From: Nanobdellota archaeon
Lineage (GTDB): Archaea > Nanobdellota > Nanobdellia > Pacearchaeales > GW2011-AR1
Length of the DNA stretch: 37,062 bases
Reading direction: 5' to 3'
NCBI GenBank assembly: GCA_038045165.1
Contig: JBBSYR010000057.1
Location: forward strand, 1-37,062
Position numbers and translations under genes: made by a program. Positions within the stretch are counted from its first letter, which is position 1. Every line of letters starts with the position of its first letter. A model generated the notes under the pieces. That model did no database searches, was not told the DNA's origin, and saw only the letters and a list, made by a program, of their open reading frames with translations. Of this stretch, positions 4,314 through 37,062 are shown in pieces.

Positions 4314-4334
4314 GCTGTTTTCTTTTCAATAAGC

Positions 4335-9777: not shown

Positions 9778-9798
9778 GTTGAATTGTGTCAAGTGAAG

Positions 9799-12210: not shown

Positions 12211-12217
12211 CTACTGA

Positions 12218-12287
12218 GAGAATTTTTAATTCTCGAGGTGCTCAGAAACGAAGTTTCTGACATTTAGGGAAAGACTTAATGTCTTTC
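12218..12287 (+). other. array of three perfect short hairpins in the intergenic spacer
   Basis: GAGAATT-TTT-AATTCTC (12218..12234), TCAGAAAC-GAA-GTTTCTGA (12242..12260) and GAAAGAC-TTAAT-GTCTTTC (12269..12287). Confidence 0.5.
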
Positions 12288-12301
12288 ACTATAGTTATGT
12301 T

Positions 12302-12309
12302 TTTAAATA
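12302..12309 (+). promoter_or_regulatory. TATA box (TTTAAATA) for the 12329 gene
   Basis: Starts 27 nt upstream of the ATG at 12329. Confidence 0.4.
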
Positions 12310-12328
12310 AAAAAGTGCTGAGAATAGG

Positions 12329-14988: not shown

Positions 14989-15627
14989 ATGCTAAGAATA
15001 TTAAGAGACTTTTCAAAAAGAATGCTGAGAAGCTTATTTGGGAAAAAAGAAAGCATAAAAATTGGCTTTTATGGCCCGCCGAATGCAGGAAAAACAAGCC
15101 TCGCCAATAGAATCTGCAAAGACTGGACTGGTGAAGATATCGGGGTTGTAAGCAGAGTGCCTCATGAAACAAGGCATGTCCAGTTCAAAGAAAAAGTTGA
15201 GATAAAACATAAAGGAAAAAGTTTAATATTTAAATTAATAGACACTCCGGGAATAGCGACTAAAATAGATTATGAAAATTTTCTTCATTATGGTATAAAA
15301 AAGGGCGAGGCAAAAAAAAGAGCTAAGGAAGCTACGCAGGGGATCATAGAATCAATTCAATGGCTTGATGACATGAACGCTGTTGTGATAGTGCTTGATG
15401 CTTCTGAAAATCCATACTCCCAAGTGAATATTACAATTATCGGCAATCTTGTTGCCCGAAAGATTCCTGTTCTTATAGTCGCCAATAAAATTGATTTGAA
15501 GAAAGCAGAAGTGAAAAAGGTTGAATCTGCATTTCCAGAGTATGATGTTATTGGCATTTCGGCAAAAGAAGGTATAAATATCGAAGAGTTTTATGAAGCA
15601 TTGTTTAGATTAGCAAAAAAAGTATGA
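14989..15627 (+). CDS. small GTP-binding protein (TRAFAC-class GTPase)
   Basis: G1 GPPNAGKTS, G3 DTPG, G4 NKID, G5 SAK. 212 aa. Confidence 0.85.
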   Translation: MLRILRDFSKRMLRSLFGKKESIKIGFYGPPNAGKTSLANRICKDWTGEDIGVVSRVPHETRHVQFKEKVEIKHKGKSLIFKLIDTPGIATKIDYENFLHYGIKKGEAKKRAKEATQGIIESIQWLDDMNAVVIVLDASENPYSQVNITIIGNLVARKIPVLIVANKIDLKKAEVKKVESAFPEYDVIGISAKEGINIEEFYEALFRLAKKV

Positions 15628-16013
15628 AATATAAAAAATTAAGAGGCTTGAGCTTGCAGGTTATTCCGTTCACAGAGATAGAAAAGCTTAGCATTTCAGA
15701 AAGAGTGAAAAAGGTTTTGAATCTTGTATTAAGCAACAAGATAGTGATAATCCACGGCAGACTTCGAGCCGAAGAGGAAGCGCGGTTGATTGAGGATACT
15801 ATGGCTCTTGTTGACCATGTAAAGAACTTCAAAGGAATTGAGCTGGCAGTCATAGAGCCGGACTTAAAAGATAAGGGCGTGTTTGAGAAGTTCAAGCACG
15901 GCTTGGCGAAAAGGCTTGTTGGGGACAGCGAGGCGCTTACTGTTGTTGGGCCTTCATCAATTGTCAAGGAGATTAAGCGCGATCCGAGAAAGATTGAATT
16001 GTTTTTGAGTTAG
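15624..16013 (+). CDS. conserved archaeal protein, DUF2073-like
   Basis: ATGA-coupled to the GTPase. 129 aa. The pattern ...IVIIHGRLRAEEEARLIEDTM...FKGIEL fits my recollection of DUF2073, which usually sits beside this GTPase. Not verified by search. Confidence 0.55.
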   Translation: MKYKKLRGLSLQVIPFTEIEKLSISERVKKVLNLVLSNKIVIIHGRLRAEEEARLIEDTMALVDHVKNFKGIELAVIEPDLKDKGVFEKFKHGLAKRLVGDSEALTVVGPSSIVKEIKRDPRKIELFLS

Positions 16014-16036
16014 AACTGAGCAATCCCAAACATAAA

Positions 16037-16044
16037 TTTATTAA
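16037..16044 (+). promoter_or_regulatory. TATA box (TTTATTAA) for the Zn-ribbon gene
   Basis: Starts 29 nt upstream of the ATG at 16066. Confidence 0.4.
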
Positions 16045-16065
16045 CTTGGTTTTTTTGGTTATTAT

Positions 16066-16446
16066 ATGCCATACAAATGTGTTCATTGCCTTGAAATTTA
16101 TGAAGACGGCTCGAAGGAAATCTTGACTGGATGCACTAATTGTAAAAGCAAATTCTTTTTTTACATAAAACCTGAGAAACTGAAGGAAATTCTTGAAAGC
16201 GAGGGAAGAGAGCCAGAGCTTTCTGATGCAGAGAAAGAACAGATGGAGCAGGACGTAAGAGAAATTGCTGGCCTTGAAGAGGACGAAGAAACTCCAGTAT
16301 TCCTGGATTTTGAAAGCATACAAGTGCTCAAACCTGGCAAGTATCTTCTGGATTTAACAAAGCTATTTTCAGTCAATAAACCGAGGGTTTATCATCTCGA
16401 GGATGGAAAATATCTAGTTGATTTTACTTCAAAGACTAAGAGTTAA
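16066..16446 (+). CDS. Zn-ribbon protein (DUF2072-like)
   Basis: N-terminal CVHC...CTNC ribbon followed by an acidic linker. 126 aa. Third member of the archaeal GTPase triad as I recall it. Confidence 0.6.
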   Translation: MPYKCVHCLEIYEDGSKEILTGCTNCKSKFFFYIKPEKLKEILESEGREPELSDAEKEQMEQDVREIAGLEEDEETPVFLDFESIQVLKPGKYLLDLTKLFSVNKPRVYHLEDGKYLVDFTSKTKS

Positions 16447-24696: not shown

Positions 24697-25635
24697 ATGG
24701 CAAAGTTATCAAATCCGCACGCAGGAAGTCTGCAGTTCTGGCCGCGCAAAAGGGCAGAAAAAATTATTCCTAGTGTCAACTGGCAGCCAGTAAAAGGCAA
24801 AGGTCTTCTCGGTTTTATTGCATACAAAGTTGGAATGGCCTCTGTTCTCGTAAAAGACAACACTCCTGATTCAATGACCAAAGGCAAAAAAATAGTTCTC
24901 CCTGTAACAATTCTAGAGATTCCCAATATAAAGGTTTATTCAGTCAGATTCTATAAATTCGGAAAAGTCCTGAAAGACGTTATTGTTTCTAATGATAAAG
25001 AGTTAAAGAGGATAGTAAAACTTCCGAAGCAAATCCTGCCTTTTGATTTTCTGATACCTAAAGATTATGATGACATAAAAATAATTATTTACTCGCTGCC
25101 AAAACAAACTTCAATTAAAAAAACTCCAGACTTAATTGAAATCGCATTTGCTGCAGATGACAAGCTCGCTTTTGTTAAATCTCTTTTAGGCAAAGAGCTC
25201 TCGCTAAAAGAATTTTTTACTTCTGATTTAGTTGATGCTCGCGGTTTGACAATCGGCAAAGGTCTCGTAGGTCCAGTCAAAAGATTTGGCATAACTCTAA
25301 AGCAGCACAAAACAGAAAAAGGAGTCAGGCGCCCAGGAAGCTTATCTCCTTGGCATCCAGCAAGAGTCACTTTCAGAACGCCCATGGCTGGTCAATTAGG
25401 CATGTTCTCACGGGTTCACTATAATCTCAAAGTTATCTCTGCGTCTTCAATTACAGAAAAAGATATCAATCCATCAGGAGGGTTTAAAAATTACGGAAAA
25501 ATAAAATCAAATTATATTCTAATAAAAGGAAGTGTCCAAGGTCCGCCAAAGAGGCAGGTTTTGCTGACTCAATCTTACAGACCGACTAAATCTCCAGCAA
25601 AGAAAAAATATGAACTTATCGAGGTGCTAAGATGA
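24697..25635 (+). CDS. rpl3: 50S ribosomal protein uL3
   Basis: N-terminus PHAGSLQFWPRKRA, plus its operon position. Confidence 0.95.
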   Translation: MAKLSNPHAGSLQFWPRKRAEKIIPSVNWQPVKGKGLLGFIAYKVGMASVLVKDNTPDSMTKGKKIVLPVTILEIPNIKVYSVRFYKFGKVLKDVIVSNDKELKRIVKLPKQILPFDFLIPKDYDDIKIIIYSLPKQTSIKKTPDLIEIAFAADDKLAFVKSLLGKELSLKEFFTSDLVDARGLTIGKGLVGPVKRFGITLKQHKTEKGVRRPGSLSPWHPARVTFRTPMAGQLGMFSRVHYNLKVISASSITEKDINPSGGFKNYGKIKSNYILIKGSVQGPPKRQVLLTQSYRPTKSPAKKKYELIEVLR

Positions 25636-26411
25636 AAGCGCAATTATATTCTCAATCAGGCGAAAAGAAATCAGAAATAGAGCTTCCAGAAATCTTTTCA
25701 AGCAAAATAAGAGAAGACCTCGCCGCAAAATCTTCCGAAGTTGAAAAATTCGAATTAAGGCAGCCATATTCTTCATATTCAGAAGCAGGAAAAAGGCATT
25801 CAGCATCAGGAACAATCAGCCACTTGAGGCACACATGGAAAGGGCATTATGGAAAAGGAATTTCAAGGGTGCCAAGAAAAACAATGTGGAGGCGCGGAAC
25901 TCAATTTTATTGGGTTGGCGCAGAAATTTCAGGCTCAAGAGGGGGCAGAATTTCGCATCCTCCACAAGGCATTTACAGCCAGAGAAAAATAAATAAAAAA
26001 GAAACAAAATTAGCATTCGCCTCTGCTTTCGCAGCAACAGCAAGCAGGCGATTTGTTCTAAAAAGATATTCAACTCTGAATGAAAATGCGCTTCCAGTTA
26101 TTCCTTTAGTAATTGAATCTGTTCCTGCAAAAACAAAAGATTTTCTTTCTGTTCTGGAAAAAATATTCGGCAAAGCTTATTCATTAGTGATAAGAAATAA
26201 GGAAGTTCGTCCAGGCAAAGGCAAAAAAAGAGGCAGAAAATATAAGTCAAATGCTGGCCTTTTGCTCGTCACAGCTGCAGATGAAAAAGTCAAATGCAAA
26301 AATATCGAAGTAAAAGCAGTCAAAGAAATTAATATCGCTGACCTTTATCCTTTAGGCAGGCTCACTTTATATACTAAAAAAGCACTGGAGGAGCTTAAGG
26401 ACATAAAATGA
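25632..26411 (+). CDS. rpl4: 50S ribosomal protein uL4
   Basis: Synteny, plus GKGISRVPR...WRRGTQF and RGGRISHPP motifs. Confidence 0.9.
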   Translation: MKAQLYSQSGEKKSEIELPEIFSSKIREDLAAKSSEVEKFELRQPYSSYSEAGKRHSASGTISHLRHTWKGHYGKGISRVPRKTMWRRGTQFYWVGAEISGSRGGRISHPPQGIYSQRKINKKETKLAFASAFAATASRRFVLKRYSTLNENALPVIPLVIESVPAKTKDFLSVLEKIFGKAYSLVIRNKEVRPGKGKKRGRKYKSNAGLLLVTAADEKVKCKNIEVKAVKEINIADLYPLGRLTLYTKKALEELKDIK

Positions 26412-26650
26412 TACTCAAGCCAGTAACATCAGAAAAAGCAGTAAAAATGATAGAATTAGAAAATACTCTTCTGTTCGAAACAGAGCGCAGGGCAAAAAAG
26501 CAGGAAATAAAAAAAGAAGTCGAGGAAGTTTTTGCAGTCAAAGTTGAGAAAGTCAGGACTTTGATTCATGGAAACGCAAAATTCGCCTACGTAAGATTAA
26601 ACAAATTAAATCCCGCGATAGATGTCGCAAATAAGCTGGGGATTATGTAA
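26408..26650 (+). CDS. rpl23: 50S ribosomal protein uL23
   Basis: 80 aa. ILKPVTSEKAVKMIE..NTLLFE, plus synteny. Confidence 0.9.
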   Translation: MILKPVTSEKAVKMIELENTLLFETERRAKKQEIKKEVEEVFAVKVEKVRTLIHGNAKFAYVRLNKLNPAIDVANKLGIM

Positions 26651-26651
26651 A

Positions 26652-27347
26652 ATGGGCAAGCGAATAATTTCACAGGCGCGAGGGCATGGCTCTCTGACAT
26701 ATCAAGTCAGAAAAAAAGCATATATCTACAAGATAAAATATCCTATGCACGAGGGAGAAGCAGAAATTCTTGACATTCTGCATTCAGCAGCGCACACAGC
26801 GCCGTTGATGAAAATAAAAATAAAAAATGAAATTTTTTACGACCCCGCATTTTCAGGAGCAGTCGTGGGCCAAAAAATAACAATTGGCGGCGAGCCAAAA
26901 GAAGGAAATATTCTAATGTTAAAAAATGTGCCTGTCGGGCTAAGAGTTTATAATCTTGAATTAAATCCTGGAGATGGAGGAAAAATGATAAGAGCGGCAG
27001 GAATGAGTGCATTAGTTTTCAAAAAATTAGATAACAATAAATTTATTATTTTAATGCCGAATAAAAAAGAAGTTAATGTCAGCGGCGATTGCAGGGTTAC
27101 CATAGGCACAATTGCCGGCGAAGACAGAAAATTGAAGCCATTTATAAAAGCAGGAAAAATGTTCTATAAGATGAAAGCCAGAAACAAGCTTTGGCCAAGA
27201 ACTTCAGCAGTCAAGATGAATGCAGTAGACCATCCTTTCGGCTCAGGCAGAGGCAAAAGAATTAAGTCCAAAATAGCAAAGAGAAATGCTCCGCCAGGAA
27301 CAAGAGTAGGGCATATTCGCCCAAGCAGAACAGGGAGGAGAAAATAA
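26652..27347 (+). CDS. rpl2: 50S ribosomal protein uL2
   Basis: MGKRIISQARGHGS start. C-terminal VDHPFGSGRG and GRRK. The track start 26622 is rejected because it overlaps uL23. Confidence 0.95.
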   Translation: MGKRIISQARGHGSLTYQVRKKAYIYKIKYPMHEGEAEILDILHSAAHTAPLMKIKIKNEIFYDPAFSGAVVGQKITIGGEPKEGNILMLKNVPVGLRVYNLELNPGDGGKMIRAAGMSALVFKKLDNNKFIILMPNKKEVNVSGDCRVTIGTIAGEDRKLKPFIKAGKMFYKMKARNKLWPRTSAVKMNAVDHPFGSGRGKRIKSKIAKRNAPPGTRVGHIRPSRTGRRK

Positions 27348-27405
27348 ATGAGTTTAGATAAGAGAAAAGACAGAATAGCAATAGTAATAAAGAGGTCACA
27401 ATAAT

Positions 27406-27810
27406 ATGGCAGATGAAATAATAGTAAAATCAAAAGAATTGTTCTATAGAGGCAAACATCTGGAAGAATTGAAAAAACTCGATGTGCGGGAGTTTGCAAA
27501 ATATCTTCCATCAAGAAGCAGGCGCACGGTTTTGCGAAACTTCGATTCAATAGAAAAATTTGTCAATCTTTGCGAAGAAAAAATCTCCCGCAATAAAAAA
27601 ATAAAAACTCATTTAAGAGACATAGTTATTGTTCCGAAAATGGTTGGAATGGCAATTCAGGTGTACACTGGCAAATCTTTTAATGAAGTTAGAATCACCC
27701 ATCTAATGATTGGCCATCGCCTTGGAGAATTTGCATTAACAAGGCAGAGAGTTCATCATGGAAATCCAGGCATTGGAGCCACTAAGAGCTCATCTGCGGA
27801 GGCTAAATAA
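27406..27810 (+). CDS. rps19: 30S ribosomal protein uS19
   Basis: GKSFNEVRITHLMIGHRLGEFALTR, plus synteny. Confidence 0.93.
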   Translation: MADEIIVKSKELFYRGKHLEELKKLDVREFAKYLPSRSRRTVLRNFDSIEKFVNLCEEKISRNKKIKTHLRDIVIVPKMVGMAIQVYTGKSFNEVRITHLMIGHRLGEFALTRQRVHHGNPGIGATKSSSAEAK

Positions 27811-27811
27811 A

Positions 27812-28546
27812 ATGGAAAAACAATACGTTCAAAAAAAAGCAAAAGCATCACAATTGAGCAAAGCAATTGAAAATAAGGATATTAAGAAATCTCCAGATAA
27901 GTCTCCTGCCTCTCTCGCTGGTAATTCCACTTCCGCTTCTTCATCCCCTTCTCAATCTTCTCCTGCTCCCCAATCTGCCACTCCAGCATCTTCCTCTCAA
28001 CCTTCATCTTCTCAAACATCCCCTTCAGCTCCAACAGAAAAAACAGAAGAAAAAGAAAAAAAGCCAAAAGAAGCAGTTAAAGTTAAAAAAGAGGAAGCTA
28101 TTGCAAAAGGCCTCAATCTTCATGCTTCAAAAAAGCACTGCATGTATATCTGTTCATTTATTAAAAACAAATCCATTGACTGGGCAATTTTGGAATTGCA
28201 GAAAGTTATTCAGCTAAAAAGACCTATTCCATTTAAGGGCGAAATTCCCCACAGAAGTTATCCAGGAATGATGTCTGGCAGATATCCTGTAAGCGCATCA
28301 AAGCAATTTATTAATATTTTAAAAGCACTAAAAGGCAATGTAATTGCCAATGGCATGGAATTAGAAAAAACCCGCATTTATTTTGGCTCAGCAAATTGGG
28401 CTTCCCGCCCTCAGAAACGCGGCGGAGCAAGGTTCAAAAGAACCCATGTCTTGTTAAAGGCAAAAGAATTTAATAGTGAAAATAAAGCACAAATGAAAAC
28501 CCAAAAATCAGAAAAAACTGAAATAAAGTCGGAGGCGGAGAAATAA
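27812..28546 (+). CDS. rpl22: 50S ribosomal protein uL22 with a long S/P-rich N-terminal extension
   Basis: uL22 core (LHASKKHCMYICSFIKNKSIDWAILELQKVI...RYPVSASKQF...) preceded by about 95 aa of K-rich then S/P-rich sequence. Start at the TAA-A-ATG junction. Confidence 0.85.
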   Translation: MEKQYVQKKAKASQLSKAIENKDIKKSPDKSPASLAGNSTSASSSPSQSSPAPQSATPASSSQPSSSQTSPSAPTEKTEEKEKKPKEAVKVKKEEAIAKGLNLHASKKHCMYICSFIKNKSIDWAILELQKVIQLKRPIPFKGEIPHRSYPGMMSGRYPVSASKQFINILKALKGNVIANGMELEKTRIYFGSANWASRPQKRGGARFKRTHVLLKAKEFNSENKAQMKTQKSEKTEIKSEAEK

Positions 28547-28547
28547 A

Positions 28548-29258
28548 ATGGACGAGAAAAAATTTGTGGGTTTTAAGAAAGAAGAACTTGGCGTCAAGGA
28601 ATATGTAAAAAGAGCTCTCGGCAAGGGAAAAATAAGCAATATCTCAATTGAATATATCCCGGTTGGAGAAAAAATAGTCGTTGCTACAAGCAAGCCAGGT
28701 CTCGTCATCGGCAGGCGCGGAGAAAAAATAGAAGAATTGACAAGAGTTATTAAAAAAAGATTTCACTTTGACAATCCTCACGTTGAAATAAAAGAAATTA
28801 CAGAGCCATTCTTCGACGCTCATCTTGTTGCTGATGAAATTGCCATGGGATTGGAAAGAGAAGGCTCTTTAAAATTCAAAGTCATTGCTTACAAAATGCT
28901 TCAGGAGATAATGCGGCGCGGCGCCCTCGGAGTAGAAATAGTCCTTTCAGGCAAACTTCCAAGTGAACGAGCAAGGAGCTGGAGATTTGCCCAAGGTTAC
29001 TTGAAAAAAACAGGCAATCCTGCAAAAGTAGTTGATAGGGCAATTTCTCAAGCTAAAACACTTCCAGGCATAATTGGAATTAAGGTAAGCATTCTTCCGC
29101 CAAAGGCCCACATCCATGACAGAATTGTAATAGACGACGCATTAAGAAAGAAAGTCAGCTTTTTGGAAGAAGCTCCAAAAGAAGTCATTCAAGAAGAAAA
29201 AAAGCCAAAGAAAATAAGAAAAAAGAAAGAACAGGAGGCAGAAAATGGCGTTGATTAA
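28548..29258 (+). CDS. rps3: 30S ribosomal protein uS3
   Basis: KH domain GLVIGRRGEKIEEL, plus synteny. K/E-rich tail. Confidence 0.93.
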   Translation: MDEKKFVGFKKEELGVKEYVKRALGKGKISNISIEYIPVGEKIVVATSKPGLVIGRRGEKIEELTRVIKKRFHFDNPHVEIKEITEPFFDAHLVADEIAMGLEREGSLKFKVIAYKMLQEIMRRGALGVEIVLSGKLPSERARSWRFAQGYLKKTGNPAKVVDRAISQAKTLPGIIGIKVSILPPKAHIHDRIVIDDALRKKVSFLEEAPKEVIQEEKKPKKIRKKKEQEAENGVD

Positions 29259-29442
29259 ACTTTCAGACATAAAGAAAATGAATTCTCAAGATAAAAAGGA
29301 TAAAATAAAAGAGCTAAAACTTGAATTAATAAAAAGCCACGTTACTGCAAATACAAATATGAAAACCAAAGAGATTAAAAGGGCTATTGCTCGGTTAATT
29401 ACATTCAACATCCTCCATAAGGAGGAGCTGAATAAGAAGTAA
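29245..29442 (+). CDS. rpl29: 50S ribosomal protein uL29
   Basis: 65 aa, helical K-rich (KELKLELIKS...IKRAIARL), plus synteny. Confidence 0.85.
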   Translation: MALIKLSDIKKMNSQDKKDKIKELKLELIKSHVTANTNMKTKEIKRAIARLITFNILHKEELNKK

Positions 29443-29443
29443 T

Positions 29444-29743
29444 ATGGACACAGATCCACGACTAGGATTGCCAACTGAAACAGGAGTATTTGAAGAGATT
29501 GCAAAAGGCGAACAGAAAATAAATGTTTCAACTGTATCGCGTAGATACGGCAAAATAACAACCCTTGTAAGCGGATTTGACAAAAACTTCGATATCAAAG
29601 GCACTGCAAAGCACCTTAAAGAGCAGCTCGCCTGCGGCGGCACCATCAAGGATGGTGTCATAGAACTTCAAGGAAATCACAAGAAGCAAGTAAAGCCAAT
29701 ACTCATGAAACTTGGTTTTCCAGAAGAATCAATTTCAGATTAA
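29444..29743 (+). CDS. sui1: translation initiation factor aSUI1 (eIF1 homologue)
   Basis: GKITTLVSGFD...LKEQLACGGTIKDGVIELQGNH. Canonical position after uL29. Confidence 0.88.
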   Translation: MDTDPRLGLPTETGVFEEIAKGEQKINVSTVSRRYGKITTLVSGFDKNFDIKGTAKHLKEQLACGGTIKDGVIELQGNHKKQVKPILMKLGFPEESISD

Positions 29744-29747
29744 TAAA

Positions 29748-30107
29748 ATGGAAAAGAAAAAAACAAAAACAGAAGACAATAAGCAAAAAGAAATAGCAGC
29801 GCCAAGCGCGCCAGATAAATTAATTGCAAATAGAGGCAGAACTTTTAAAGGAGTTGTAGTAAAAAAGTTTCCTACTCGGGTAGTTGTTGAATTCGGGCGA
29901 GTTGTTTTTGTTCCAAAATATGATCGTTTCTACAAGAAAAAAACAAGGATTCATGCGAGGCTTCCCCAAGGAATAGAAGTTAATGTCAATGATTATGTAA
30001 AAGTTGCAGAATGCCGTCCTTTAAGCAAAATTATTCATCATGTGGTCATAGAAAAAATACTTTCTATAGAAGAAGCACATTCAGAAAATTCAGAGGAGAA
30101 AAAATAA
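29748..30107 (+). CDS. rps17: 30S ribosomal protein uS17
   Basis: GRTFKGVVVKK...VPKYDRFYKKKTRIHA...GDYVKVAECRPLSK-like pattern, plus synteny. Confidence 0.9.
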   Translation: MEKKKTKTEDNKQKEIAAPSAPDKLIANRGRTFKGVVVKKFPTRVVVEFGRVVFVPKYDRFYKKKTRIHARLPQGIEVNVNDYVKVAECRPLSKIIHHVVIEKILSIEEAHSENSEEKK

Positions 30108-30108
30108 A

Positions 30109-30447
30109 ATGATAAACCCAGAGCAATTAGAAAGAAATCCAGAAGTTATATTAATAATAAAAGGAGAACGAATAAACGCGAGATACATAAGCCTGACAGC
30201 AAGGCGAGATTTAGGAATAAGAACCGCAGAAGATAATGCAGTTTTTGCTCAAGAAGACACAGAAAGAGAGTATATACAAACGTTGAGCATGCCGTATTCT
30301 GATTTAATTGAAGAAGGCAATTTAGTAAGATTAATTGATGATAAAATTTCTGGCACGTTATATTGGCAAACAGGCAGTTTATCTGGCAAGAGAGAAACAT
30401 TCAGAAAACTTCACAAATTTTTACATTCTCAGGAGGTCGCACAATGA
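30109..30447 (+). CDS. ORFan A (112 aa) inserted in the ribosomal operon
   Basis: The full-length ORF fills the gap exactly. TAA-A-ATG junction with uS17. No recognisable motif. Net acidic, with Arg more frequent than Lys. Confidence 0.6.
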   Translation: MINPEQLERNPEVILIIKGERINARYISLTARRDLGIRTAEDNAVFAQEDTEREYIQTLSMPYSDLIEEGNLVRLIDDKISGTLYWQTGSLSGKRETFRKLHKFLHSQEVAQ

Positions 30448-30791
30448 TAGCCTTTGAAGACATAGAAAAAAAGTATTTGCAGGCAAGAGAATGTATGGCT
30501 GATATTATTCAGGCAGTGTCAACTGATAATTATCCTCCTCATGCTACGTGGATTCATCCTCCAGCAATGGCAAGATGGCTCTACCTTTCAAGCTGTGAAT
30601 TTTTAAAAGATTATACTAAAATATCTGGTATGTTTAGGTCAGAAAATGTTGAACAAAGTGCAAAAATAGATTTATGGCGAGACGAATTAGACCAAAAAGT
30701 TAATCATATATGGAATATAGGACCTGATAGATTTATACAAGAAGCAGTAAAAAGGACACTATCTCCTTCTATTAGGGAGCTCTGTGCATAA
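30444..30791 (+). CDS. ORFan B (115 aa) inserted in the ribosomal operon
   Basis: AGGAGG at 30431..30436. ATGA overlap with ORFan A and TAATG overlap with uL14. Probably helical. No recognisable motif. Confidence 0.6.
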   Translation: MIAFEDIEKKYLQARECMADIIQAVSTDNYPPHATWIHPPAMARWLYLSSCEFLKDYTKISGMFRSENVEQSAKIDLWRDELDQKVNHIWNIGPDRFIQEAVKRTLSPSIRELCA

Positions 30792-31192
30792 TGAAAGCAA
30801 TTAATGCATCGGTCACGCGAGGTTTAAACATCGGCAGTCAAGTTGTTGCTGCAGACAACAGCGGAGCAAGAATAGTTAGAATAACCGGAGTCAAGCACGG
30901 AAAAACCAAAAAAGGAAGACAGCAATATGCAAAAGTCGCTGATTGGGTTAAAGTTTCAGTTCGAGCAGGAAAACCAGATATGAAAGGTCAGGTATTTGAT
31001 GCAGTAGTCATAAGGCAAAAAAAGCCGTATATGCGCCTGACAGGTGAGCGTGTCTGTTTCGAAGATAATGCAGTTGCTCTGCTTAAAGATGAAAAAGGAA
31101 ATCCAAAAGGCACAATGATTAAGGGGCCAGTCGCAAAAGAAATTCATGAAAGGTGGGCGCAAGTTGCAAAAATCGCGCAATATGTTTTATGA
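30791..31192 (+). CDS. rpl14: 50S ribosomal protein uL14
   Basis: VADNSGAR...VIRQKKP..R..G....FEDNA. Confidence 0.95.
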   Translation: MKAINASVTRGLNIGSQVVAADNSGARIVRITGVKHGKTKKGRQQYAKVADWVKVSVRAGKPDMKGQVFDAVVIRQKKPYMRLTGERVCFEDNAVALLKDEKGNPKGTMIKGPVAKEIHERWAQVAKIAQYVL

Positions 31193-31593
31193 AATCTCAT
31201 TTTTCATCCCATTGGAATGCAAGCAGGCAGCCGAGGAAGCAAAGAAAATACACTCACAACGCCCCGCTTTCCACAAGGCATAAATTTTTAAGCGCTCAAT
31301 TGTCAAAAGAATTAAGGAAAAAGCATGGCAAGAGATCCCTTCCCTTAAGAAAAGGCGACGAAGTGCTTGTCATGCGGGGCAGTTTTAAGAAGAAGAAAGC
31401 AAAAATCTCTTCAGCTGATCTAAAGAGTTCAATTGTATTCTTGGAAGGATTGCAAAGACAGAAAAAAGACGGAACAAAAGTAAATGTTCCTTTTCACCCA
31501 AGCAATCTTCAGATTCAATCTTTAAACTTAGACGACAAGAAAAGAGCAGATTCATTAAAGCCAGCTACACATAAACAGGAGGAGAAAAAATAA
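31189..31593 (+). CDS. rpl24: 50S ribosomal protein uL24
   Basis: KOW motif LRKGDEVLVMRGSFKKKKAKI. ATGA junction with uL14. Confidence 0.9.
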   Translation: MKSHFSSHWNASRQPRKQRKYTHNAPLSTRHKFLSAQLSKELRKKHGKRSLPLRKGDEVLVMRGSFKKKKAKISSADLKSSIVFLEGLQRQKKDGTKVNVPFHPSNLQIQSLNLDDKKRADSLKPATHKQEEKK

Positions 31594-31594
31594 A

Positions 31595-32212
31595 ATGCAC
31601 CAAACAAGAAGAGAATCATCGACAAAATTACCAATTCCAAGAAAAGGAACAAAATACCTAGTCAGAGCCTCAAGCCATATTAAAAATTCTATTCCCGTGC
31701 TGATTGCCCTAAGAGATATGCTTAAATTAGCGAGAAACGCAAAAGAGGCAAAAAGCATAATCAAAGAAAAAGAAATAAAAATAAACGGAAAGAGAGTAAA
31801 AGACTATCACGAAAGTATTAAGCTGTTCAATATACTCGAAGCAGATAAAACATACGTGTTATCTCTTCTTCCGACTAAAAAATTTATTCTACAAGAATCA
31901 AAAATAAATTTCCGCTTATGCAAAGTCACAGGAAAAAGATTAATTAAAGGAAATACAACACAGATTAATTTGCATGACGGCTCAAATCTTTTAACTAAAG
32001 AGAAAGCAAATGTCGGCGACTCAATTTATCTCGATTTTGCAGGCAAAATAAAGAAAATAGTTCCATTAGAAAAAGGAAAAGAAGTATTTGTCATTGATGG
32101 CAAGCATACAGGCCAGAAAGGCACAATCTCTAGTATAGAAAACAAAAAAGCAGATATTCAATTTAAAGAAGGCGTATTTCAGATTGACTTTGGGAGGGTT
32201 GTCGCGCTATGA
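31595..32212 (+). CDS. rps4e: 30S ribosomal protein eS4
   Basis: STKLPIPRKGTKYLVR N-terminus. KOW-like GKEVFVIDGKHTGQKGTI. Confidence 0.9.
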   Translation: MHQTRRESSTKLPIPRKGTKYLVRASSHIKNSIPVLIALRDMLKLARNAKEAKSIIKEKEIKINGKRVKDYHESIKLFNILEADKTYVLSLLPTKKFILQESKINFRLCKVTGKRLIKGNTTQINLHDGSNLLTKEKANVGDSIYLDFAGKIKKIVPLEKGKEVFVIDGKHTGQKGTISSIENKKADIQFKEGVFQIDFGRVVAL

Positions 32213-32763
32213 GTTCAAAATCAGAAAAGCCAAAACCAAAAAAAGCAGAAGAAAAAGTTCAGGCTGAAAATCCAATGAGAAAAATATTCATAGAAAAAGT
32301 CCTATTAAGCGCAGGAGCAACTGGAGACAATTTGCTGAAAGCGAAAAAGCTTCTCGAGATTCTTTCAAGCAGCAAAGCTCAAATAATTGCCTCAACAAAA
32401 AGAATTCCAGATTTTGGCATTAGCCCAGGTTTAGAAGTCGGAACAAGAGTCACTTTAAGGGGAGACAAAGCAACTGAACTTTTAAAAAGATTACTAAGTG
32501 CAATAGACAACAAAATTAAAAAAAAGCAAGTTGTTGAAAATAATTTTTCCTTCGGCGTTAAAGAGTATATAGAAATTCCAGGAATGGAATACCAAAGAGA
32601 CATAGGGATTCGCGGATTTAATGTAAATGTTGTCTTTATCAGAAAGGGCATTAGAATCTCTTTAAAAAAGATAAAATCTAGCAAAATTCCAAAAAAGCAA
32701 AGAGTTTCAAAAAAAGAAATAATCAAATTTATGGAGGATAATTTCAAAACGGAATTTATTTAA
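32209..32763 (+). CDS. rpl5: 50S ribosomal protein uL5
   Basis: NPMRKIFIEKVLLSAG....GLEVGTRVTLRG, plus synteny. Confidence 0.93.
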   Translation: MSSKSEKPKPKKAEEKVQAENPMRKIFIEKVLLSAGATGDNLLKAKKLLEILSSSKAQIIASTKRIPDFGISPGLEVGTRVTLRGDKATELLKRLLSAIDNKIKKKQVVENNFSFGVKEYIEIPGMEYQRDIGIRGFNVNVVFIRKGIRISLKKIKSSKIPKKQRVSKKEIIKFMEDNFKTEFI

Positions 32764-32764
32764 A

Positions 32765-32995
32765 ATGACAGCCAGCGACCATAGCAAAATATTAAAGCAG
32801 TTGAGAAATAAGCCGGCAGTTATGCAGAAATTCCTGCGCCATTGCAAGCCAAAAGACAGGAAAACAGGAATAGCTGCAAGAAAATGCGAGCGATGCGGCC
32901 GCTTTGGCGCTCATCTCAAGCAATATAATCTAAATTTATGCCGGCAGTGCTTCAGGGAGATTGCAGAAGAAATCGGCTTTGAAAAATACAATTAA
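32765..32995 (+). CDS. rps14: 30S ribosomal protein uS14 (Zn type)
   Basis: CERCGR....LNLCRQCFRE. Start 32765 is chosen from the TAA-A-ATG junction. An internal ATG at 32822 would give the more usual ~57 aa. Confidence 0.85.
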   Translation: MTASDHSKILKQLRNKPAVMQKFLRHCKPKDRKTGIAARKCERCGRFGAHLKQYNLNLCRQCFREIAEEIGFEKYN

Positions 32996-32996
32996 T

Positions 32997-33371
32997 ATGA
33001 GTCAAGATAAAATCGCAGATGCTTTGAATCAAATGATGAACGCTCTAAGAGCAGAAAAAGATTCTATAGTTGTAAATGCGCACTCAAAGTTATTGCTTTC
33101 AATTCTCGCGCTTGCAAAACTTAAAGGTTATGTTAAAAATTATAAATTAGCAGGAAAATCTGTTTCAATAGAATTTGCAAAGCTTAATGGGTGTAATGCA
33201 ATAAAACCGAGATATTTTGTTAAAGTTGAAGAAATCGACAAGTATACTAAGAGATATCTTCCTGCAAAAGAAATTGGAATGCTCATCGTTTCAACCAGCC
33301 AAGGAATAATGGCTCATCAGACAGCTCAAGAAAAGAATATAGGGGGGAGCTTATTAGCTTATTTTTACTAA
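32997..33371 (+). CDS. rps8: 30S ribosomal protein uS8
   Basis: DKIADALNQMMNA....LKGYVKNY....GGSLLAYFY. Confidence 0.93.
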   Translation: MSQDKIADALNQMMNALRAEKDSIVVNAHSKLLLSILALAKLKGYVKNYKLAGKSVSIEFAKLNGCNAIKPRYFVKVEEIDKYTKRYLPAKEIGMLIVSTSQGIMAHQTAQEKNIGGSLLAYFY

Positions 33372-33911
33372 ATGAAAAAAGAAATTATAGAATCCGCAGA
33401 TATTCCAGAAGGCACAACTTGCAGATTTTCAGATTCAATCCTCTTCTGCAAGAAAGATTCATTAGAACTCTCTAAGAAGTTTAAACTCCCAAAAGTAGAA
33501 ATCGAAGTCAAAGGCTCTAAAATAATTTTATCATCTAAAAAAGGAAGCAAGAAAGAGTTTAAAATGATAAAATCAGCAATCGCCCACATAAAAAATATCT
33601 TCAAAGGGCTAAAGAATAAATTTACTTATCACCTCGAAGCGTGCAATCTTCATTTTCCAATGATTCTTAAAGTTGAGAAAGATGAATTAGTAATAAATAA
33701 TTTTTTAGGAGAAAAAGTTCCAAGGCGTGCAAAAATTAGGCCAAAAGTAGAAATTGATGTCAAAGGTTATAAGATTACTCTAACTTCTAATGACCGGGAA
33801 GCTGCAGGGCAGACTGCTGCAAACATAGAAAAAGCTACAAAAATCAGTTATAGGGACAGAAGAATTTTTCAAGATGGGATTTTCATTACAGAAAAACCGG
33901 AGGATAAATAA
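33372..33911 (+). CDS. rpl6: 50S ribosomal protein uL6
   Basis: Two-repeat uL6 layout (VEIEVKGSKIILSS / VEIDVKGYKITLTS), plus synteny. Confidence 0.9.
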   Translation: MKKEIIESADIPEGTTCRFSDSILFCKKDSLELSKKFKLPKVEIEVKGSKIILSSKKGSKKEFKMIKSAIAHIKNIFKGLKNKFTYHLEACNLHFPMILKVEKDELVINNFLGEKVPRRAKIRPKVEIDVKGYKITLTSNDREAAGQTAANIEKATKISYRDRRIFQDGIFITEKPEDK

Positions 33912-34261
33912 TGCCCAAGCAATTTTTAAGAGCAGACACATTCAGGTATAAAAGAATTGGAAAAAATAGACCAAAGCTTCAGAAATGGAGAAGACCGAGG
34001 GGCAAGCATAATAAGCTCAGATTAAAAAGAACAGGGCATCCAGCATGCCCTTCAATTGGATATGGAACAAAAAGGGTCAATTCAGGAAAAATTTTAGGTT
34101 TCAAGCCAATATTAATAAATAATCTTAAAGAGCTCGAAAAAATCGGCAAAGACAACGCAATAATCATCTCTAAGAGAATTGGAGCAAAAAATAAATTAGA
34201 AATAATTAAAATTGCAGAAGGCAGAAAAATAAAAATCTTAAATTTAGGAGCTAAAAAATGA
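33911..34261 (+). CDS. rpl32e: 50S ribosomal protein eL32
   Basis: WRRPRGKHNKLR...GHP..PSIGYG, plus synteny. Confidence 0.9.
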   Translation: MPKQFLRADTFRYKRIGKNRPKLQKWRRPRGKHNKLRLKRTGHPACPSIGYGTKRVNSGKILGFKPILINNLKELEKIGKDNAIIISKRIGAKNKLEIIKIAEGRKIKILNLGAKK

Positions 34262-34665
34262 ATCTCGGAAAGAAAAAAATACTTGCAGCAAGAACACTCG
34301 GAGTCGGGAAGGATAGGATAGTTTTTAACATAAAAAGGCTAAGCGACATAAAAGAAGCAATAACAAAACAGGATATCAGGGATTTATTAAACGCTCACGC
34401 TATTTTTGTTAAAGAGCCAAAGGGAAGAAAGACAAAAGTTAAGAAAAGAAGCAGAAGAAGAGCAGGAAGCATAAGAAAAAAAATAAAAGGCGGAAAAAGA
34501 GAATATATAATTTTAACAAGAAAGCTTAGGGCGCATCTCGCTGAATTAAAGAGAAAAGGCGAAATCACTCCGGAAAAACTTCTAAAAATGAGAAGAGAGA
34601 TAAAATCACATGCCTTTAAAAGCAAGGCGCACATGAAGGAGGTTATTTCACATAAAGCAAAATGA
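34258..34665 (+). CDS. rpl19e: 50S ribosomal protein eL19
   Basis: KKKILAARTLGVGKDRIVF...RRRAGSIRKK, plus synteny. Confidence 0.9.
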   Translation: MNLGKKKILAARTLGVGKDRIVFNIKRLSDIKEAITKQDIRDLLNAHAIFVKEPKGRKTKVKKRSRRRAGSIRKKIKGGKREYIILTRKLRAHLAELKRKGEITPEKLLKMRREIKSHAFKSKAHMKEVISHKAK

Positions 34666-35138
34666 GAGCAGTATTAAAACGAAGAAGACTTGAAGCAAAA
34701 ACAGACTACCATGCAAGAGTTTCATTGTTAAAGTCAGTCAAACCGAGGTTAGTCATTAGAAAAACAAATAGGTATATAATTGCTCAATTTGTTGAATCAA
34801 AATTAGCACAGGATAAGATAATCTTAGGAGTTACCTCAAAAGATCTTCTCCAAAAAGGCTGGCCAAAAGAAAATGCGGGAAGTTTAAAAAGCAGGGCAGC
34901 TGCATATTTAACAGGCGTCATGCTTGCAAAAAAAGCAGCAGGAAAAATAAAAGAAGCAATATTTGACTTAGGATTGCAAAGAAATGTTAAAAAATCCAGA
35001 ATTTATTCTGCTCTTAAAGGAGTTATTGACGGCGGAGTCAAGATACCTTGCACTGAAGAATCGCTTCCCTCCCAAGAAAGCATTGATTTAAACGAAAAAG
35101 TCGGAAGTTTAATAAATAAATTAAAATCAAAATTATAA
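34662..35138 (+). CDS. rpl18: 50S ribosomal protein uL18
   Basis: RLVIRKTNRYIIAQFV....AAAYLTG, plus synteny. Confidence 0.9.
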   Translation: MRAVLKRRRLEAKTDYHARVSLLKSVKPRLVIRKTNRYIIAQFVESKLAQDKIILGVTSKDLLQKGWPKENAGSLKSRAAAYLTGVMLAKKAAGKIKEAIFDLGLQRNVKKSRIYSALKGVIDGGVKIPCTEESLPSQESIDLNEKVGSLINKLKSKL

Positions 35139-35139
35139 A

Positions 35140-35451
35140 ATGGAAACACTAAAAAATATTTTCGAGTTACGCGCACAATGGAATGAAGGAGATAGATTCA
35201 GAGTTGATGGTATAGCATACTCCTTTCACGGAGGAGTTGATAAAGGCGTATTAGCTATATCTAAACAAAATGATGATTGTTATGTTGAGGTTATTATTCA
35301 AGAGCCAAAGGGAACAGATATAAATAATTTAACTGGAAGAATAACATCTCCACAACTTATTAGAAGACATGTTGCTCAACATGATATGGCAAGTTTTGAT
35401 TTCTATGATGGGATATGGAATGCTTCTTCAAGAGAGGAGGTCACAGCATAA
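35140..35451 (+). CDS. ORFan C (103 aa) inserted between uL18 and uS5
   Basis: The ORF fills the gap exactly, with TAA-A-ATG junctions on both sides. Its last codons carry the GGAGG that serves uS5. No recognisable motif. Confidence 0.6.
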   Translation: METLKNIFELRAQWNEGDRFRVDGIAYSFHGGVDKGVLAISKQNDDCYVEVIIQEPKGTDINNLTGRITSPQLIRRHVAQHDMASFDFYDGIWNASSREEVTA

Positions 35452-35452
35452 A

Positions 35453-36271
35453 ATGGCAGAAAAAGAAACAAAAAACAAGCCGAAAGATTTGATTGAAGCT
35501 GTTCCAGAAGAATTGTCCAAAATAGACTTGAATAAACTTATAGGCGAGGAAGCAGCAGAAGCTCCAAAAGAAGTCAAAAGGCTCACTTCAAGCGAAAGAA
35601 GAGCTATTCAAGAAGTAGAAGCAAGAGAAAGGGCCCTTGAATCATGGGTTCCCAAGACGCAATTAGGCAAAGATGTCAAGGCGGGCAAAGAAAAAGATAT
35701 AGATAAAATTCTTGCATCAGGAAAAAAAATACTCGAGTTCCAGATAGTTGAATCTTTACTAAAATTAGAAAATGACTTGCTCTTAGTTGGCCAGGCAAAA
35801 GGAAAATTTGGCGGCGGAAAAAGAAGAGCATGGCGCCAGACGCAAAAGAAAACAATGGAAGGCAATGTCGTTACTTTTTCATGCATGGCAGTTGTCGGAG
35901 ATAAAAAAGGGCATGTAGGCGTAGGCATAGGAAGAGCAAAAGAAACTCTGCCTTCAAGAGAAAAAGCATTTAGAAAAGCAAAATTGAATGTAATCAAAGT
36001 TACAATAGGATACGAATCTCCCGAAGAAAAAGGAAATGAACCTCACACAGTCCCATTCATTGTCCAAGGCAAATGCGGCAGCGTAAGAATAAAACTTATT
36101 CCAGCGCCCCGTGGAACAGGGCTGGTTGTCGGAGATGAATGCAAAAAAATTCTAAGGCTTGCAGGAATAAAAGATGTCTATGGCGTAACGCGCGGTCAGA
36201 CAAGAACAACTATAAATGTCGCAAATGCCTGTATAGATGCGCTAACTAAAACAAATAAAATGAAAATATGA
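35453..36271 (+). CDS. rps5: 30S ribosomal protein uS5 (with an N-terminal acidic/K-rich extension)
   Basis: WVPKTQLGK...FSCMAVVGDKKGHVGVGIGRAKE...GTGLVVGD. Track start 35369 is rejected because it overlaps ORFan C. Confidence 0.93.
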   Translation: MAEKETKNKPKDLIEAVPEELSKIDLNKLIGEEAAEAPKEVKRLTSSERRAIQEVEARERALESWVPKTQLGKDVKAGKEKDIDKILASGKKILEFQIVESLLKLENDLLLVGQAKGKFGGGKRRAWRQTQKKTMEGNVVTFSCMAVVGDKKGHVGVGIGRAKETLPSREKAFRKAKLNVIKVTIGYESPEEKGNEPHTVPFIVQGKCGSVRIKLIPAPRGTGLVVGDECKKILRLAGIKDVYGVTRGQTRTTINVANACIDALTKTNKMKI

Positions 36272-36684
36272 TACTTATAATAAGAATTTCAGGGCTTGTA
36301 GAAATGCCTAGCAATGCGCAGGAAACATTGTTTAGAATGCGCCTTAGAAGAAAATACTCTGCTGTTTTAATAAAAGATACTTCTGAAAATAAAAAGATTC
36401 TTCAAAAAATCAGAAACTTCGTTGCATATGGTCCGATAAATCAAGAGACGCTAATTCAGCTAATTGAAAAAAGGGCGCAAGTTATCGGAAACAATAAAAT
36501 AGATTCTGCAAAAATCACAGAGCAATTGGAAAAAGGCAGGACTGAGGATTTGGGCATCAAACCTTTCTTCAGGCTTCATCCGCCAAGAGGAGGCATTGAT
36601 TCAAAGACGCATTTTCCAATAAGAAAAGGAGTTCTCGGTGACAACAAAGAAAAAATTAATGATTTGGTTAGGAGGATGTTGTAA
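36268..36684 (+). CDS. rpl30: 50S ribosomal protein uL30
   Basis: IIRISGLVEMPSNAQETLFRMRLRRKYSAVLI, plus synteny. Confidence 0.9.
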   Translation: MILIIRISGLVEMPSNAQETLFRMRLRRKYSAVLIKDTSENKKILQKIRNFVAYGPINQETLIQLIEKRAQVIGNNKIDSAKITEQLEKGRTEDLGIKPFFRLHPPRGGIDSKTHFPIRKGVLGDNKEKINDLVRRML

Positions 36685-36685
36685 G

Positions 36686-37062
36686 ATGGAATGGAAAGAA
36701 TTCGATAGGGGAGTTTTTTTAGTGAATGTGCTTGGAATAGTTTTTGACACAAGTAAAAAGAAGATTCTTATAGGTAAAAGAGAAAACGATAGGCACATCA
36801 AAGAGTTAACATGGTGTTTCCCAGGAGGTAGGCCAGAATACGGCGAAGAATTGGAAGATTCCCTAAAAAGTGAAATAAAAAAGAAAACTGGACTTAAAGT
36901 CGAAAGTCTAGGAGCAGTATTTGCAAAAGCATATCCGGAGAAAAAAGAATTTCTTTCAATATATTATTTATGTGAAGTTATAGGTGGAAAAGAAAAAGCA
37001 GGTGAAAAATTTTCTGAACTAAAATGGGTTTCTATAGATGAGCTGCAAAAATATTTTACAAC
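36686..37062 (+). CDS. Nudix-fold protein with a degenerate Nudix box (partial, runs off the window)
   Basis: My own translation from ATG 36686: MEWKEFDRGVFLVNVLGIVFD...FPGGRPEYGEELEDSLKSEIKKKTGL. It fits Gx5Ex7-(R>S)E-U-x-(EE>KK)-x-G-U. Coupled to uL30 by TAA-G-ATG. Confidence 0.65.
   Translation, partial: MEWKEFDRGVFLVNVLGIVFDTSKKKILIGKRENDRHIKELTWCFPGGRPEYGEELEDSLKSEIKKKTGLKVESLGAVFAKAYPEKKEFLSIYYLCEVIGGKEKAGEKFSELKWVSIDELQKYFT

Follow-up and report, generated by a model that had tools for sequence, protein, structure and literature searches.

A probable junction cassette separating uL18 from uS5 in a DPANN archaeal ribosomal protein operon

The gene order of ribosomal protein operons is the standard textbook case of a frozen arrangement, which is why these operons serve as phylogenetic markers. 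The archaeal S10/spc cluster also houses non-ribosomal genes, namely those for SUI1/aIF1, the RNase P protein Rpp29, adenylate and cytidylate kinases and an EMC3/DUF106-like insertase. These residents are ancient, occur across phyla and are fixed in position. In phages, extra genes known as morons lie between conserved core genes; they are intergenic and typically carry their own promoter and terminator. Here we describe ORFan C, an open reading frame (ORF) of 103 amino acids that lies between uL18 and uS5 in the S10/spc-type operon of a Pacearchaeota/Woesearchaeota-like (DPANN) groundwater archaeon. The DNA analyzed comprises positions 1 to 37,062 of contig JBBSYR010000057.1 (assembly GCA_038045165.1) and is referred to below as the window. 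We consider it probable that ORFan C is a dispensable, translationally coupled junction cassette, which is gained and lost by recombination at junction repeats.

ORFan C resembles the archaeal residents in that it is a non-ribosomal gene within a ribosomal cluster, and both SUI1 and an EMC3-like gene are present in the same operon. Unlike the residents, its family occurs in two genomes and at three junctions, and it does not occupy this site in 67 of 70 relatives. ORFan C also resembles morons. It is small, absent from close relatives and located precisely between conserved syntenic genes, and inserts of this kind are mostly orphans with a high turnover. Moron-like presence and absence between syntenic conserved genes was found in the gap table, in the empty sites and in strain-level insertions and deletions (indels) of related lineages, which are described below. 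Unlike morons, ORFan C has spacers of 1 nt, which leave no room for a promoter or terminator. Further, it is built into the translational coupling of the operon and supplies the Shine-Dalgarno (SD) sequence of the next gene.

The features that define the locus are as follows (window coordinates).

35140..35451, plus strand: ORFan C coding sequence, 103 amino acids, start METLKNIFELRAQW, between uL18 and uS5; based on coding statistics, the homologue P0002 and alignment A1.
34662..35138, plus strand: uL18 gene (Pfam Ribosomal_L5e, 4e-23), with a Lys/Asn-rich 3' end without an SD-like motif.
35453..36271, plus strand: uS5 gene (Pfam S5 N- and C-terminal domains).
35135..35143, no strand assigned: upstream copy of ATAAAATGG, with the uL18 stop TAA (35136..35138), a spacer A and the ORFan C ATG (35140..35142).
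35448..35456, no strand assigned: downstream copy of ATAAAATGG, with the ORFan C stop TAA (35449..35451), a spacer A and the uS5 ATG (35453..35455).
35435..35441, plus strand: SD sequence AGGAGGT for uS5, inside the ORFan C codons R-E-E-V and 11 nt 5' of the uS5 ATG.

ORFan C thus fills the gap between uL18 and uS5 exactly, with one spacer nucleotide on either side. The two copies of ATAAAATGG are spaced 313 nt apart, and each consists of a TAA stop, an A and ATG-G. There was no purine-rich, SD-like run in the 25 nt 5' of ORFan C (aataaattaaaatcaaaattataaa). The GGAGG core of the uS5 SD lies at 35436..35440, 12 nt 5' of the ATG at 35453, and GGAGG-like motifs likewise precede other starts by 10-14 nt in the window operon and in the related locus L010. 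When uS5 N-termini were compared, MAEKETKN was kept in the relatives, indicating that 35453 is the true uS5 start. An earlier note on this DNA had described a 103-residue ORF wedged between uL18 and uS5, the same 9-mer at both of its borders, and a GGAGG supplied to uS5 by the tail of the ORF while the end of uL18 has no SD; the coordinates and the Pfam assignments of the flanking genes agree with this description in each respect.

ORFan C is a genuine protein-coding gene and deserves annotation. When its interior was subjected to mononucleotide shuffling, the frame stayed open in 3 of 20000 shuffles, and the remaining five frames of the stretch contain 5-14 stops each. A codon log-likelihood model trained on genes of the window's ribosomal operon gave +0.115 per codon in the ORFan C frame, compared with out-of-frame values of -0.36 and -0.85. 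Among 1.84 billion representative proteins, scanned exhaustively with phmmer, there was a sole homologue, P0002, which is 40% identical to ORFan C residues 7-97 (E 2.8e-11) and keeps the frame and the hydrophobic pattern despite diverged DNA. These results bear on the explanation that ORFan C is nonfunctional, whether as the residue of a decaying gene, as an error of assembly or as inserted non-coding DNA that happens to be open. Consistent with such an origin, ORFan C has no known domain, a low-confidence fold and no counterpart in close relatives, and the RNA runs searched did not contain it. However, 9 contigs that were assembled independently, from at least three groundwater studies, carry the identical DNA, and a chance open frame of this kind is very improbable in 35% GC DNA (the GC content of the genome is 35.7%). 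Further, the full-length homologue has remained open, and the frame fits exactly between its neighbors. We therefore regard a nonfunctional ORFan C as very improbable.

To compare the site among relatives, 80 related loci were collected from metagenome contigs by means of a uL18 profile, and their uL18 is 48-67% identical to that of the window. The survey relied on our own uncurated ORF and junction calls. Matching records were labelled Candidatus Woesearchaeota and Candidatus Pacearchaeota, and the gene order from uL3 to the EMC3-like gene was invariant in all 80 loci. Among the 70 non-redundant relatives covering the uL18>uS5 junction, 67 had no insert of at least 150 nt, and most of these uL18-uS5 pairs abut (spacers of approximately -4 to +2). 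Three of the 67 (L031, L044 and L056) had gaps of 109-128 nt, that of L044 holding a mini-ORF of approximately 40 amino acids. Inserts of at least 150 nt were found in the window, L010 and L033, in the last of which the insert is MazG-like. uL18 and uS5 overlap or are adjacent in more distant archaea too, as the earlier note had assumed in calling the two genes normally adjacent. Thus, adjacency of uL18 and uS5 is the ancestral state and ORFan C is an insertion.

The note had also proposed comparing uL18-uS5 junctions in related genomes, and this comparison showed that the nearest empty sites carry the motif once. L012, L013 and L014 read TAAAATGGCAGAAAAAGAA, L022 reads TAAAATGGCAAAAAAAGAA, and the empty junction of L012 in full is TTATAAAATGGCAGAAAAAGAA. 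When the 313-nt unit (one repeat and the 304 nt between the copies) was deleted from the window, the result was AAATTATAAAATGGCAGAAAAAGAAACAAAAAACAA, which is the L012 junction. Precise excision of ORFan C would leave a uL18-uS5 junction reading AAATTATAAAATGGCAG. In other groundwater runs, the reads and contigs were too fragmented for a conspecific strain with an empty site to be recognized. Because ORFan C is missing from close relatives, it is dispensable for the lineage; this absence does not imply that it is functionless where it is present.

The gene for P0002 is located in L010, a locus from a JGI metagenome whose ribosomal proteins are, at the median, 73% identical to those of the window. 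It lies at uL23>uL2 and not at uL18>uS5; its likely true start is at 3299, 1 nt past the preceding stop, and it is flanked in L010 by a 12-bp repeat, ATAAAATGGGCA. A second protein of the same L010 operon, P0003 at uL5>uS14, is 29% identical to ORFan C over 89 amino acids (E 0.002 in a small local database). It carries the family motifs, which are collinear in alignment A1 (three members), and is probably homologous to ORFan C. The uL18>uS5 junction of L010 is taken up by another ORF, of 119 amino acids, for which no similarity to ORFan C was detected.

When 5.8 billion proteins were searched by profile, ORFan C, P0002, P0003 and no others were recovered. A word-indexed search with ORFan C returned the query itself only, a profile scan of JGI metagenome DNA gave no family members, and a hidden Markov model (HMM) search of the 80 related operons and their flanks gave no ORFan C family member. 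No relative was found among IMG/VR, the INPHARED phages or the PLSDB plasmids. The ORFan C family is therefore new and tiny, is restricted, within the sample, to ribosomal operons, and has moved between junctions at least once. Co-occurrence of ORFan C with ORFans A and B, two further inserts of the window operon, had been suggested as a check. The outcome was negative, since the only other genome with a homologue of ORFan C (L010) has neither A nor B.

ORFan C is not the only insert in these operons. Across the survey, 100 of 870 junctions (approximately 11%) carried at least 150 extra nt, and the extra ORFs were mostly orphans. Of the long loci, 27 of 31 had at least one such junction. Among 22 junction types, all but three were occupied somewhere; uS19>uL22, uL29>SUI1 and SUI1>uS17 were never occupied at 150 nt or more. 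The 163 inserted ORFs formed 115 BLAST clusters, 94 of which were singletons, and Pfam matches were obtained for approximately 15 of the 95 inserted ORFs of at least 60 amino acids (including RNase T-like, MazG, NUDIX and NTPase_I-T domains, hydrolases and a rubredoxin-like zinc ribbon). The median length of the inserted ORFs was 107 amino acids and 46% had an isoelectric point (pI) below 6, compared with a median pI of 10 for ribosomal proteins.

The inserts also share the junction architecture of ORFan C. For cassettes within 12 nt of a neighbor, 72 of 79 borders on the upstream side and 72 of 86 on the downstream side had a spacer of -4, -1 or +1. An SD preceded the ribosomal gene, within the tail of the cassette, in 78% of cases after cassettes versus 59% at ordinary junctions. 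Several insert families occur at different junctions in different genomes, and one family of mini-ORFs of approximately 40 amino acids occupies at least 10 junctions of the single operon of L044. In the homologous bacterial cluster, the insertions analyzed in detail lie mostly between operons, preceding operon separation (PMC8046335). The two cases are alike in that few foreign genes invade the most conserved gene cluster of prokaryotes; the archaeal inserts differ in lying within the operon, at gene-gene junctions and at approximately 11% of them, with gene order fully kept. A literature search found no paper on this pattern of junction inserts.

The significance of the repeat at the borders depends on how common it is. 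ATAAAATGG occurs 7 times in the window versus 1.09 expected, and 5 of the 7 occurrences are stop/start junctions of the operon (uS19>uL22, uL22>uS3, SUI1>uS17 and both borders of ORFan C). TAAAATG marks three further operon junctions. ATAAAATGG is thus the coupling or junction consensus of the operon and, because it is common to five junctions, its duplication at ORFan C alone proves nothing.

Closely related strains of other lineages nevertheless show that cassettes are gained and lost at junction repeats of this kind. One cassette, of 362 bp at uL5>uS14 and bounded by the 8-bp repeat TATGACCG, distinguishes L041 from L050 (99.3% identity over 3.3 kb). Its start, ATGACCG, is a copy of that of uS14, and it ends with the TGA that lies within the uS14 ATGA. 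L081 and L078 (96.9% identical) differ by a uS5>uL30 cassette bounded by ATGATAGCA, which is the uL30 start, and by a uS8>uL6 cassette bounded by about TAAAATGAA. The direct repeats at these strain-level indels are 8-9 bp long and contain the downstream start codon. More distant relatives of L081 and L078 do not have the uS8>uL6 and uS5>uL30 cassettes of L081, so parsimony favors recent gain. The differing cassettes (L041 2620..2985 versus L050; L081 8375..8665 and 11276..11584 versus L078) mark exact breakpoints of recent gains or losses. Among 86 cassettes, the 12 nt after the ATG were closer to the downstream gene than to other genes of the locus (4.87 versus 4.45 identities), a value reached by 63 of 10000 permutations.

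The earlier note had suggested that the 9-mer could be a footprint of insertion or simply the junction consensus of the operon, and each suggestion proved partly true. The 9-mer is the consensus at five junctions, and a footprint is supported by the repeat-bounded indels of other lineages. At ORFan C itself, the 9-bp direct repeat flanks the gene and is single in the empty sites, yet it is also the consensus of five operon junctions. The repeat is therefore the junction consensus and, plausibly, a substrate for recombination as well.

Alternatively, ORFan C may have arrived by ordinary homologous recombination with a carrier strain through the conserved flanking ribosomal genes. The 9-mers would then reflect selection for coupling and be mechanistically idle. 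The flanking genes are highly conserved (a median protein identity of 73% even to L010), the 9-mer is a consensus at five junctions, and the ORFan C start shows no extended likeness to the uS5 start, all of which accord with this explanation. It leaves unexplained the occurrence of the family at three junctions, the L044 mini-ORF family at 10 or more junctions, and the non-consensus repeats TATGACCG and ATGATAGCA that exactly bound strain-level indels. Further, a donor with ORFan C at uL18>uS5 was not found in any collection searched. We consider homologous recombination of this kind an unlikely origin, though one to be taken seriously.

Under the junction-cassette explanation, ORFan C would have no promoter of its own and would be co-transcribed with the ribosomal operon; a TATA-like TTTAATAA is present at 35108..35115, within uL18 codons. 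Its translation would proceed by termination-reinitiation at TAA-A-ATG. Because it has no SD of its own, ORFan C is probably made below the level of its neighbors. The near-identical stop/start junctions may serve for entry and exit through illegitimate or microhomology-mediated recombination, and their likeness would let cassettes enter, change junction or excise precisely with translational coupling unharmed. The TAAAATGG junction pair is the proposed substrate for precise excision. The operon would tolerate ORFan C because coupling and the uS5 SD are preserved. A programmed frameshift that would fuse uL18 to ORFan C was considered and rejected, since the sequence offers neither a slippery codon nor a stimulatory context and junctions of this form recur all along the operon.

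A dedicated mobile system that targets stop/start junctions, such as an integron, a transposon or miniature inverted-repeat transposable element (MITE), or a homing endonuclease, could also have carried ORFan C as cargo. The flanking direct repeats do resemble target-site duplications, cassettes have proliferated inside one operon (L044), and related cassettes lie at different junctions across genomes. Like integron cassettes, the inserts are promoterless single-ORF units, often orphan, in one orientation and presumably dependent on a shared upstream promoter, with frequent gain, loss and reshuffling. Unlike integron cassettes, they are dispersed over many junctions of an essential operon instead of one attachment site. 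The 1-nt spacers leave no room for attC or another recombination site, and neither attC, IntI nor attI was found. For the integrase, the scan covered the larger window ORFs beyond the operon and the genes called on the identical contigs (the operon and approximately 8 kb downstream).

Marks of insertion sequences or MITEs were likewise missing: there are no terminal inverted repeats at the ORFan C borders, the best pair (I2, 12 nt, 83%) lying outside both of them, and Pfam gave no transposase domain. No integrase, transposase or nuclease domain was found in ORFan C or in those ORFs elsewhere in the window that were scanned, PHROG and PADLOC searches were null, and viral or plasmid relatives were not found. 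The selfish, free-standing homing endonuclease genes of phage T4 (seg/mob) are similar to ORFan C in being ORFs wedged between highly conserved genes and patchy among close relatives. Unlike them, ORFan C encodes approximately 100 amino acids and is acidic, there is no evidence of cleavage or of a co-conversion tract, and Pfam, NCBIfam and PHROG searches of ORFan C gave no GIY-YIG, HNH or LAGLIDADG domain. A dedicated mobile system is therefore improbable as the carrier of ORFan C, considerably more so than homologous recombination.

The ORFan C protein has a mass of 11.7 kDa and a pI of 5.04, with 16 D+E versus 11 K+R and no hydrophobic segment. An AlphaFold model based on the 3-member alignment showed four beta strands (approximately residues 19-54) followed by C-terminal helices, with a mean predicted local distance difference test score (pLDDT) of 47. 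The model of P0006, the positional counterpart, was also poor (pLDDT 52). A Foldseek search of the ORFan C model against the PDB gave nothing (best E 1.2). No match below E 0.1 was obtained from Pfam, NCBIfam, PHROGs or PADLOC, or from sequence and profile searches of the PDB. No conserved Cys/His pattern was present in alignment A1, and BLASTP detected no similarity to ORFan A or ORFan B. The profile and structure searches that the earlier note had called for thus returned no known family, in keeping with its remark that the protein has no recognized motif and is unlike ORFans A and B. Its description of the protein as acidic was correct; beta-rich character appears only in the low-confidence model, as strands followed by helices. 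The product is predicted to be a small, acidic, soluble beta-then-alpha protein.

Several identities of the protein were considered and found no support. The motif W-N-E-G-D-R-F-R-V-D-G prompted a comparison with KOW/SH3-like beta-barrels, for which Pfam gave nothing at E <= 1 and the fold search was uninformative; the family profile did not match uL24, eS4, uL2 or uL14 of the operon. Duplication of uL18 was suggested by a 17-nt shared repeat and a BLASTP match to the uL18 C-terminus at E 0.75, but hhalign gave a probability of 0.1%. The family profile matched no operon protein, and there was no similarity to uS5, so an origin from a neighboring gene was rejected. For a toxin-antitoxin or anti-phage defence gene, PADLOC showed no match, and ORFan C is a single gene between ribosomal protein genes. 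For a new lineage-specific ribosomal protein, the pI of 5.04 is not basic (the operon median is 10.05), and neither presence nor position is conserved, the family occurring in 2 genomes at 3 junctions.

ORFan C may instead be a lineage-specific factor for translation or ribosome assembly, for example a chaperone or partner of a neighboring ribosomal protein that is made together with its client. The site within the operon has a perfect coupling architecture, and the tail of ORFan C bears the uS5 SD. The acidic protein could bind basic ribosomal proteins, all three family members occur only in ribosomal protein operons, and archaeal operons of this type already house translation-related non-ribosomal genes such as SUI1. 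On the other hand, a family in two genomes and three junctions has no constant neighbor, 67 of the 70 relatives have no insert of at least 150 nt at uL18>uS5, and the nearest relative (L010) has an unrelated ORF at that site. Most cassettes are singletons with a very fast turnover, unlike a factor with a conserved client. An assembly factor is accordingly, in our estimate, about as unlikely as homologous recombination with a carrier strain. The acidity, rarity and mobility of ORFan C speak against a structural role in the ribosome; most likely, it is a protein-binding accessory factor or a tolerated passenger.

Several points weigh against ORFan C as a junction cassette moved by recombination at repeats. 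None of the RNA runs searched contained its sequence, so that co-transcription and coupling follow from the layout only. Selection for coupling would yield identical borders under any mechanism of insertion, and the ORFan C start resembles that of uS5 only by ATGG (6 of 12 positions, control 5.2). The direction of gain or loss rests on parsimony, and a donor copy was found for no cassette. ORFan C showed no strain variation across 7 contigs (identical DNA), and the population that carries it is clonal at this locus. Further, the homology of P0003 is only moderately supported, and the low confidence of both structure models makes the statement on the fold weak.

The main interest of ORFan C lies in the wider pattern of junction cassettes. 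Possibly, although we think it rather doubtful, ORFan C is one of a class of undescribed junction-hopping cassettes, that is, small promoterless ORFs of Pacearchaeal and Woesearchaeal genomes that insert, copy and excise at the stop/start junctions of the ribosomal operon, with start-codon-proximal sequence as the substrate. If this were so, the most conserved operon in biology would be a high-expression landing pad or nursery for orphan genes, and some cassettes may make ribosomes or ribosome assembly variable among strains. If the survey figures, which come from one DPANN clade, are borne out by a full census, genes are actively being gained and lost in the operon of these organisms. It would then offer a natural system for studying the entry and exit of orphan genes in essential, highly expressed transcription units. 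The same would hold for the maintenance of translational coupling across insertions, and for the expression of lineage-specific factors from the ribosomal operon by episymbiotic archaea with tiny genomes.

The remaining features of the operon and its other inserts are as follows.

24697..36684, plus strand: S10/spc-type ribosomal protein operon, from the ORF list, the junction table and Pfam labels on identical contigs.
Order, first part: uL3, uL4, uL23, uL2, uS19, uL22, uS3, uL29, SUI1, uS17, [ORFan A, ORFan B], uL14.
Order, second part: uL24, eS4, uL5, uS14, uS8, uL6, eL32, eL19, uL18, [ORFan C], uS5, uL30.
30109..30447, plus strand: ORFan A, 112 amino acids, at uS17>uL14, unrelated to ORFan C.
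30444..30791, plus strand: ORFan B, 115 amino acids, at uS17>uL14, unrelated to ORFan C.
36686..37062, plus strand: first part of a NUDIX hydrolase gene at uL30>uL15, which continues past the window end; Pfam labels on the identical contig L001.

The window operon thus has four inserts, ORFans A, B and C and the NUDIX gene at uL30>uL15, which continues at L001 11547..11969 (the offset from L001 to the window is 25139). ORFans A and B are joined by ATGA overlaps, with AGGAGGT in the A tail ahead of B, and gave nothing below E 0.1 in Pfam, NCBIfam, PHROG and PADLOC. Among near-identical contigs with 4 single-nucleotide polymorphisms (SNPs) in 11.9 kb, three SNPs lie within 60 nt of ORFan A and all are nonsynonymous (R9K, I16V and L29P), which hints at relaxed or diversifying selection. 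Two ribosomal proteins of the operon are extended at the N-terminus: uL22 (27812..28546) by a long Ser/Pro/Gln-rich low-complexity region, and uS5 (35453..35830) by approximately 125 residues ahead of the S5 domain, with a start, MAEKETKN..PEE, that is conserved in relatives.

uL30>uL15 was the most often occupied junction of the survey (22 of 45 loci). Its occupants include a 13-member family of small CxxC...CxxC zinc ribbons with charged tails, which could be an unrecognized conserved resident of the operon. Of the few inserts that could be identified, several are nucleotide house-cleaning enzymes, which appear repeatedly. MazG-like pyrophosphatases were present at three junctions (L033 uL18>uS5, L067 uL30>uL15 and L074 eL32>eL19). 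An RNase T/DEDD-type exonuclease gene of approximately 200 amino acids is present at uL4>uL23 in three lineages (L026 1126..1725, L048 838..1476 and L089 1684..2331).

Many inserts of approximately 100 amino acids, spread over numerous junctions and genomes, have in common an N-terminal L..L..G..V.V and, at the C-terminus, Y..LD..L.EAGL-stop. Examples are L010 2893..3297, 4333..4674 and 12973..13332, L033 2547..2912, L081 4478..4789 and 11276..11584, and L041 2620..2985, among others. They are barely linked by sequence searches, each being nearly unique among 5.8 billion proteins, and may represent a very fast-evolving superfamily of junction cassettes. Membership of ORFan C in this larger superfamily was rejected at an hhalign probability of 0.5%. 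The mini-ORFs of L044 (Ga0209542_10002029) encode 36-47 amino acids (for example 726..845, 2934..3071, 8155..8268 and 10459..10587) with the pattern M-T-T-Q-K..I-N-N-K-S..S-Y-x-Y-I-N..G-G. A second L044 mini-ORF, with the hairpin CCAAAACCCGAAGAGGTTTTGG, is found at uL2>uS19 and eS4>uL5, and a variant of it with different downstream sequence at eL32>eL19 and uL30>uL15.

Beyond the operon, the setting of the window is chromosomal and archaeal, with genes for an Mre11-like phosphoesterase, an SMC/SbcC/Rad50-like ATPase, OapB/OapC, a CCA-adding enzyme, FttA/aCPSF1 and a proteasome subunit. No Rfam family reached the gathering threshold in the window, and a tRNA search of the window found none. The origin-associated proteins OapB and OapC are encoded at 15624..16446, so a replication origin may lie nearby. 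Large ORFs of 510, 808 and 882 amino acids at 4335..6321 and 9784..14977 showed no Pfam match or a PKD domain only, and are probably surface proteins typical of DPANN archaea.

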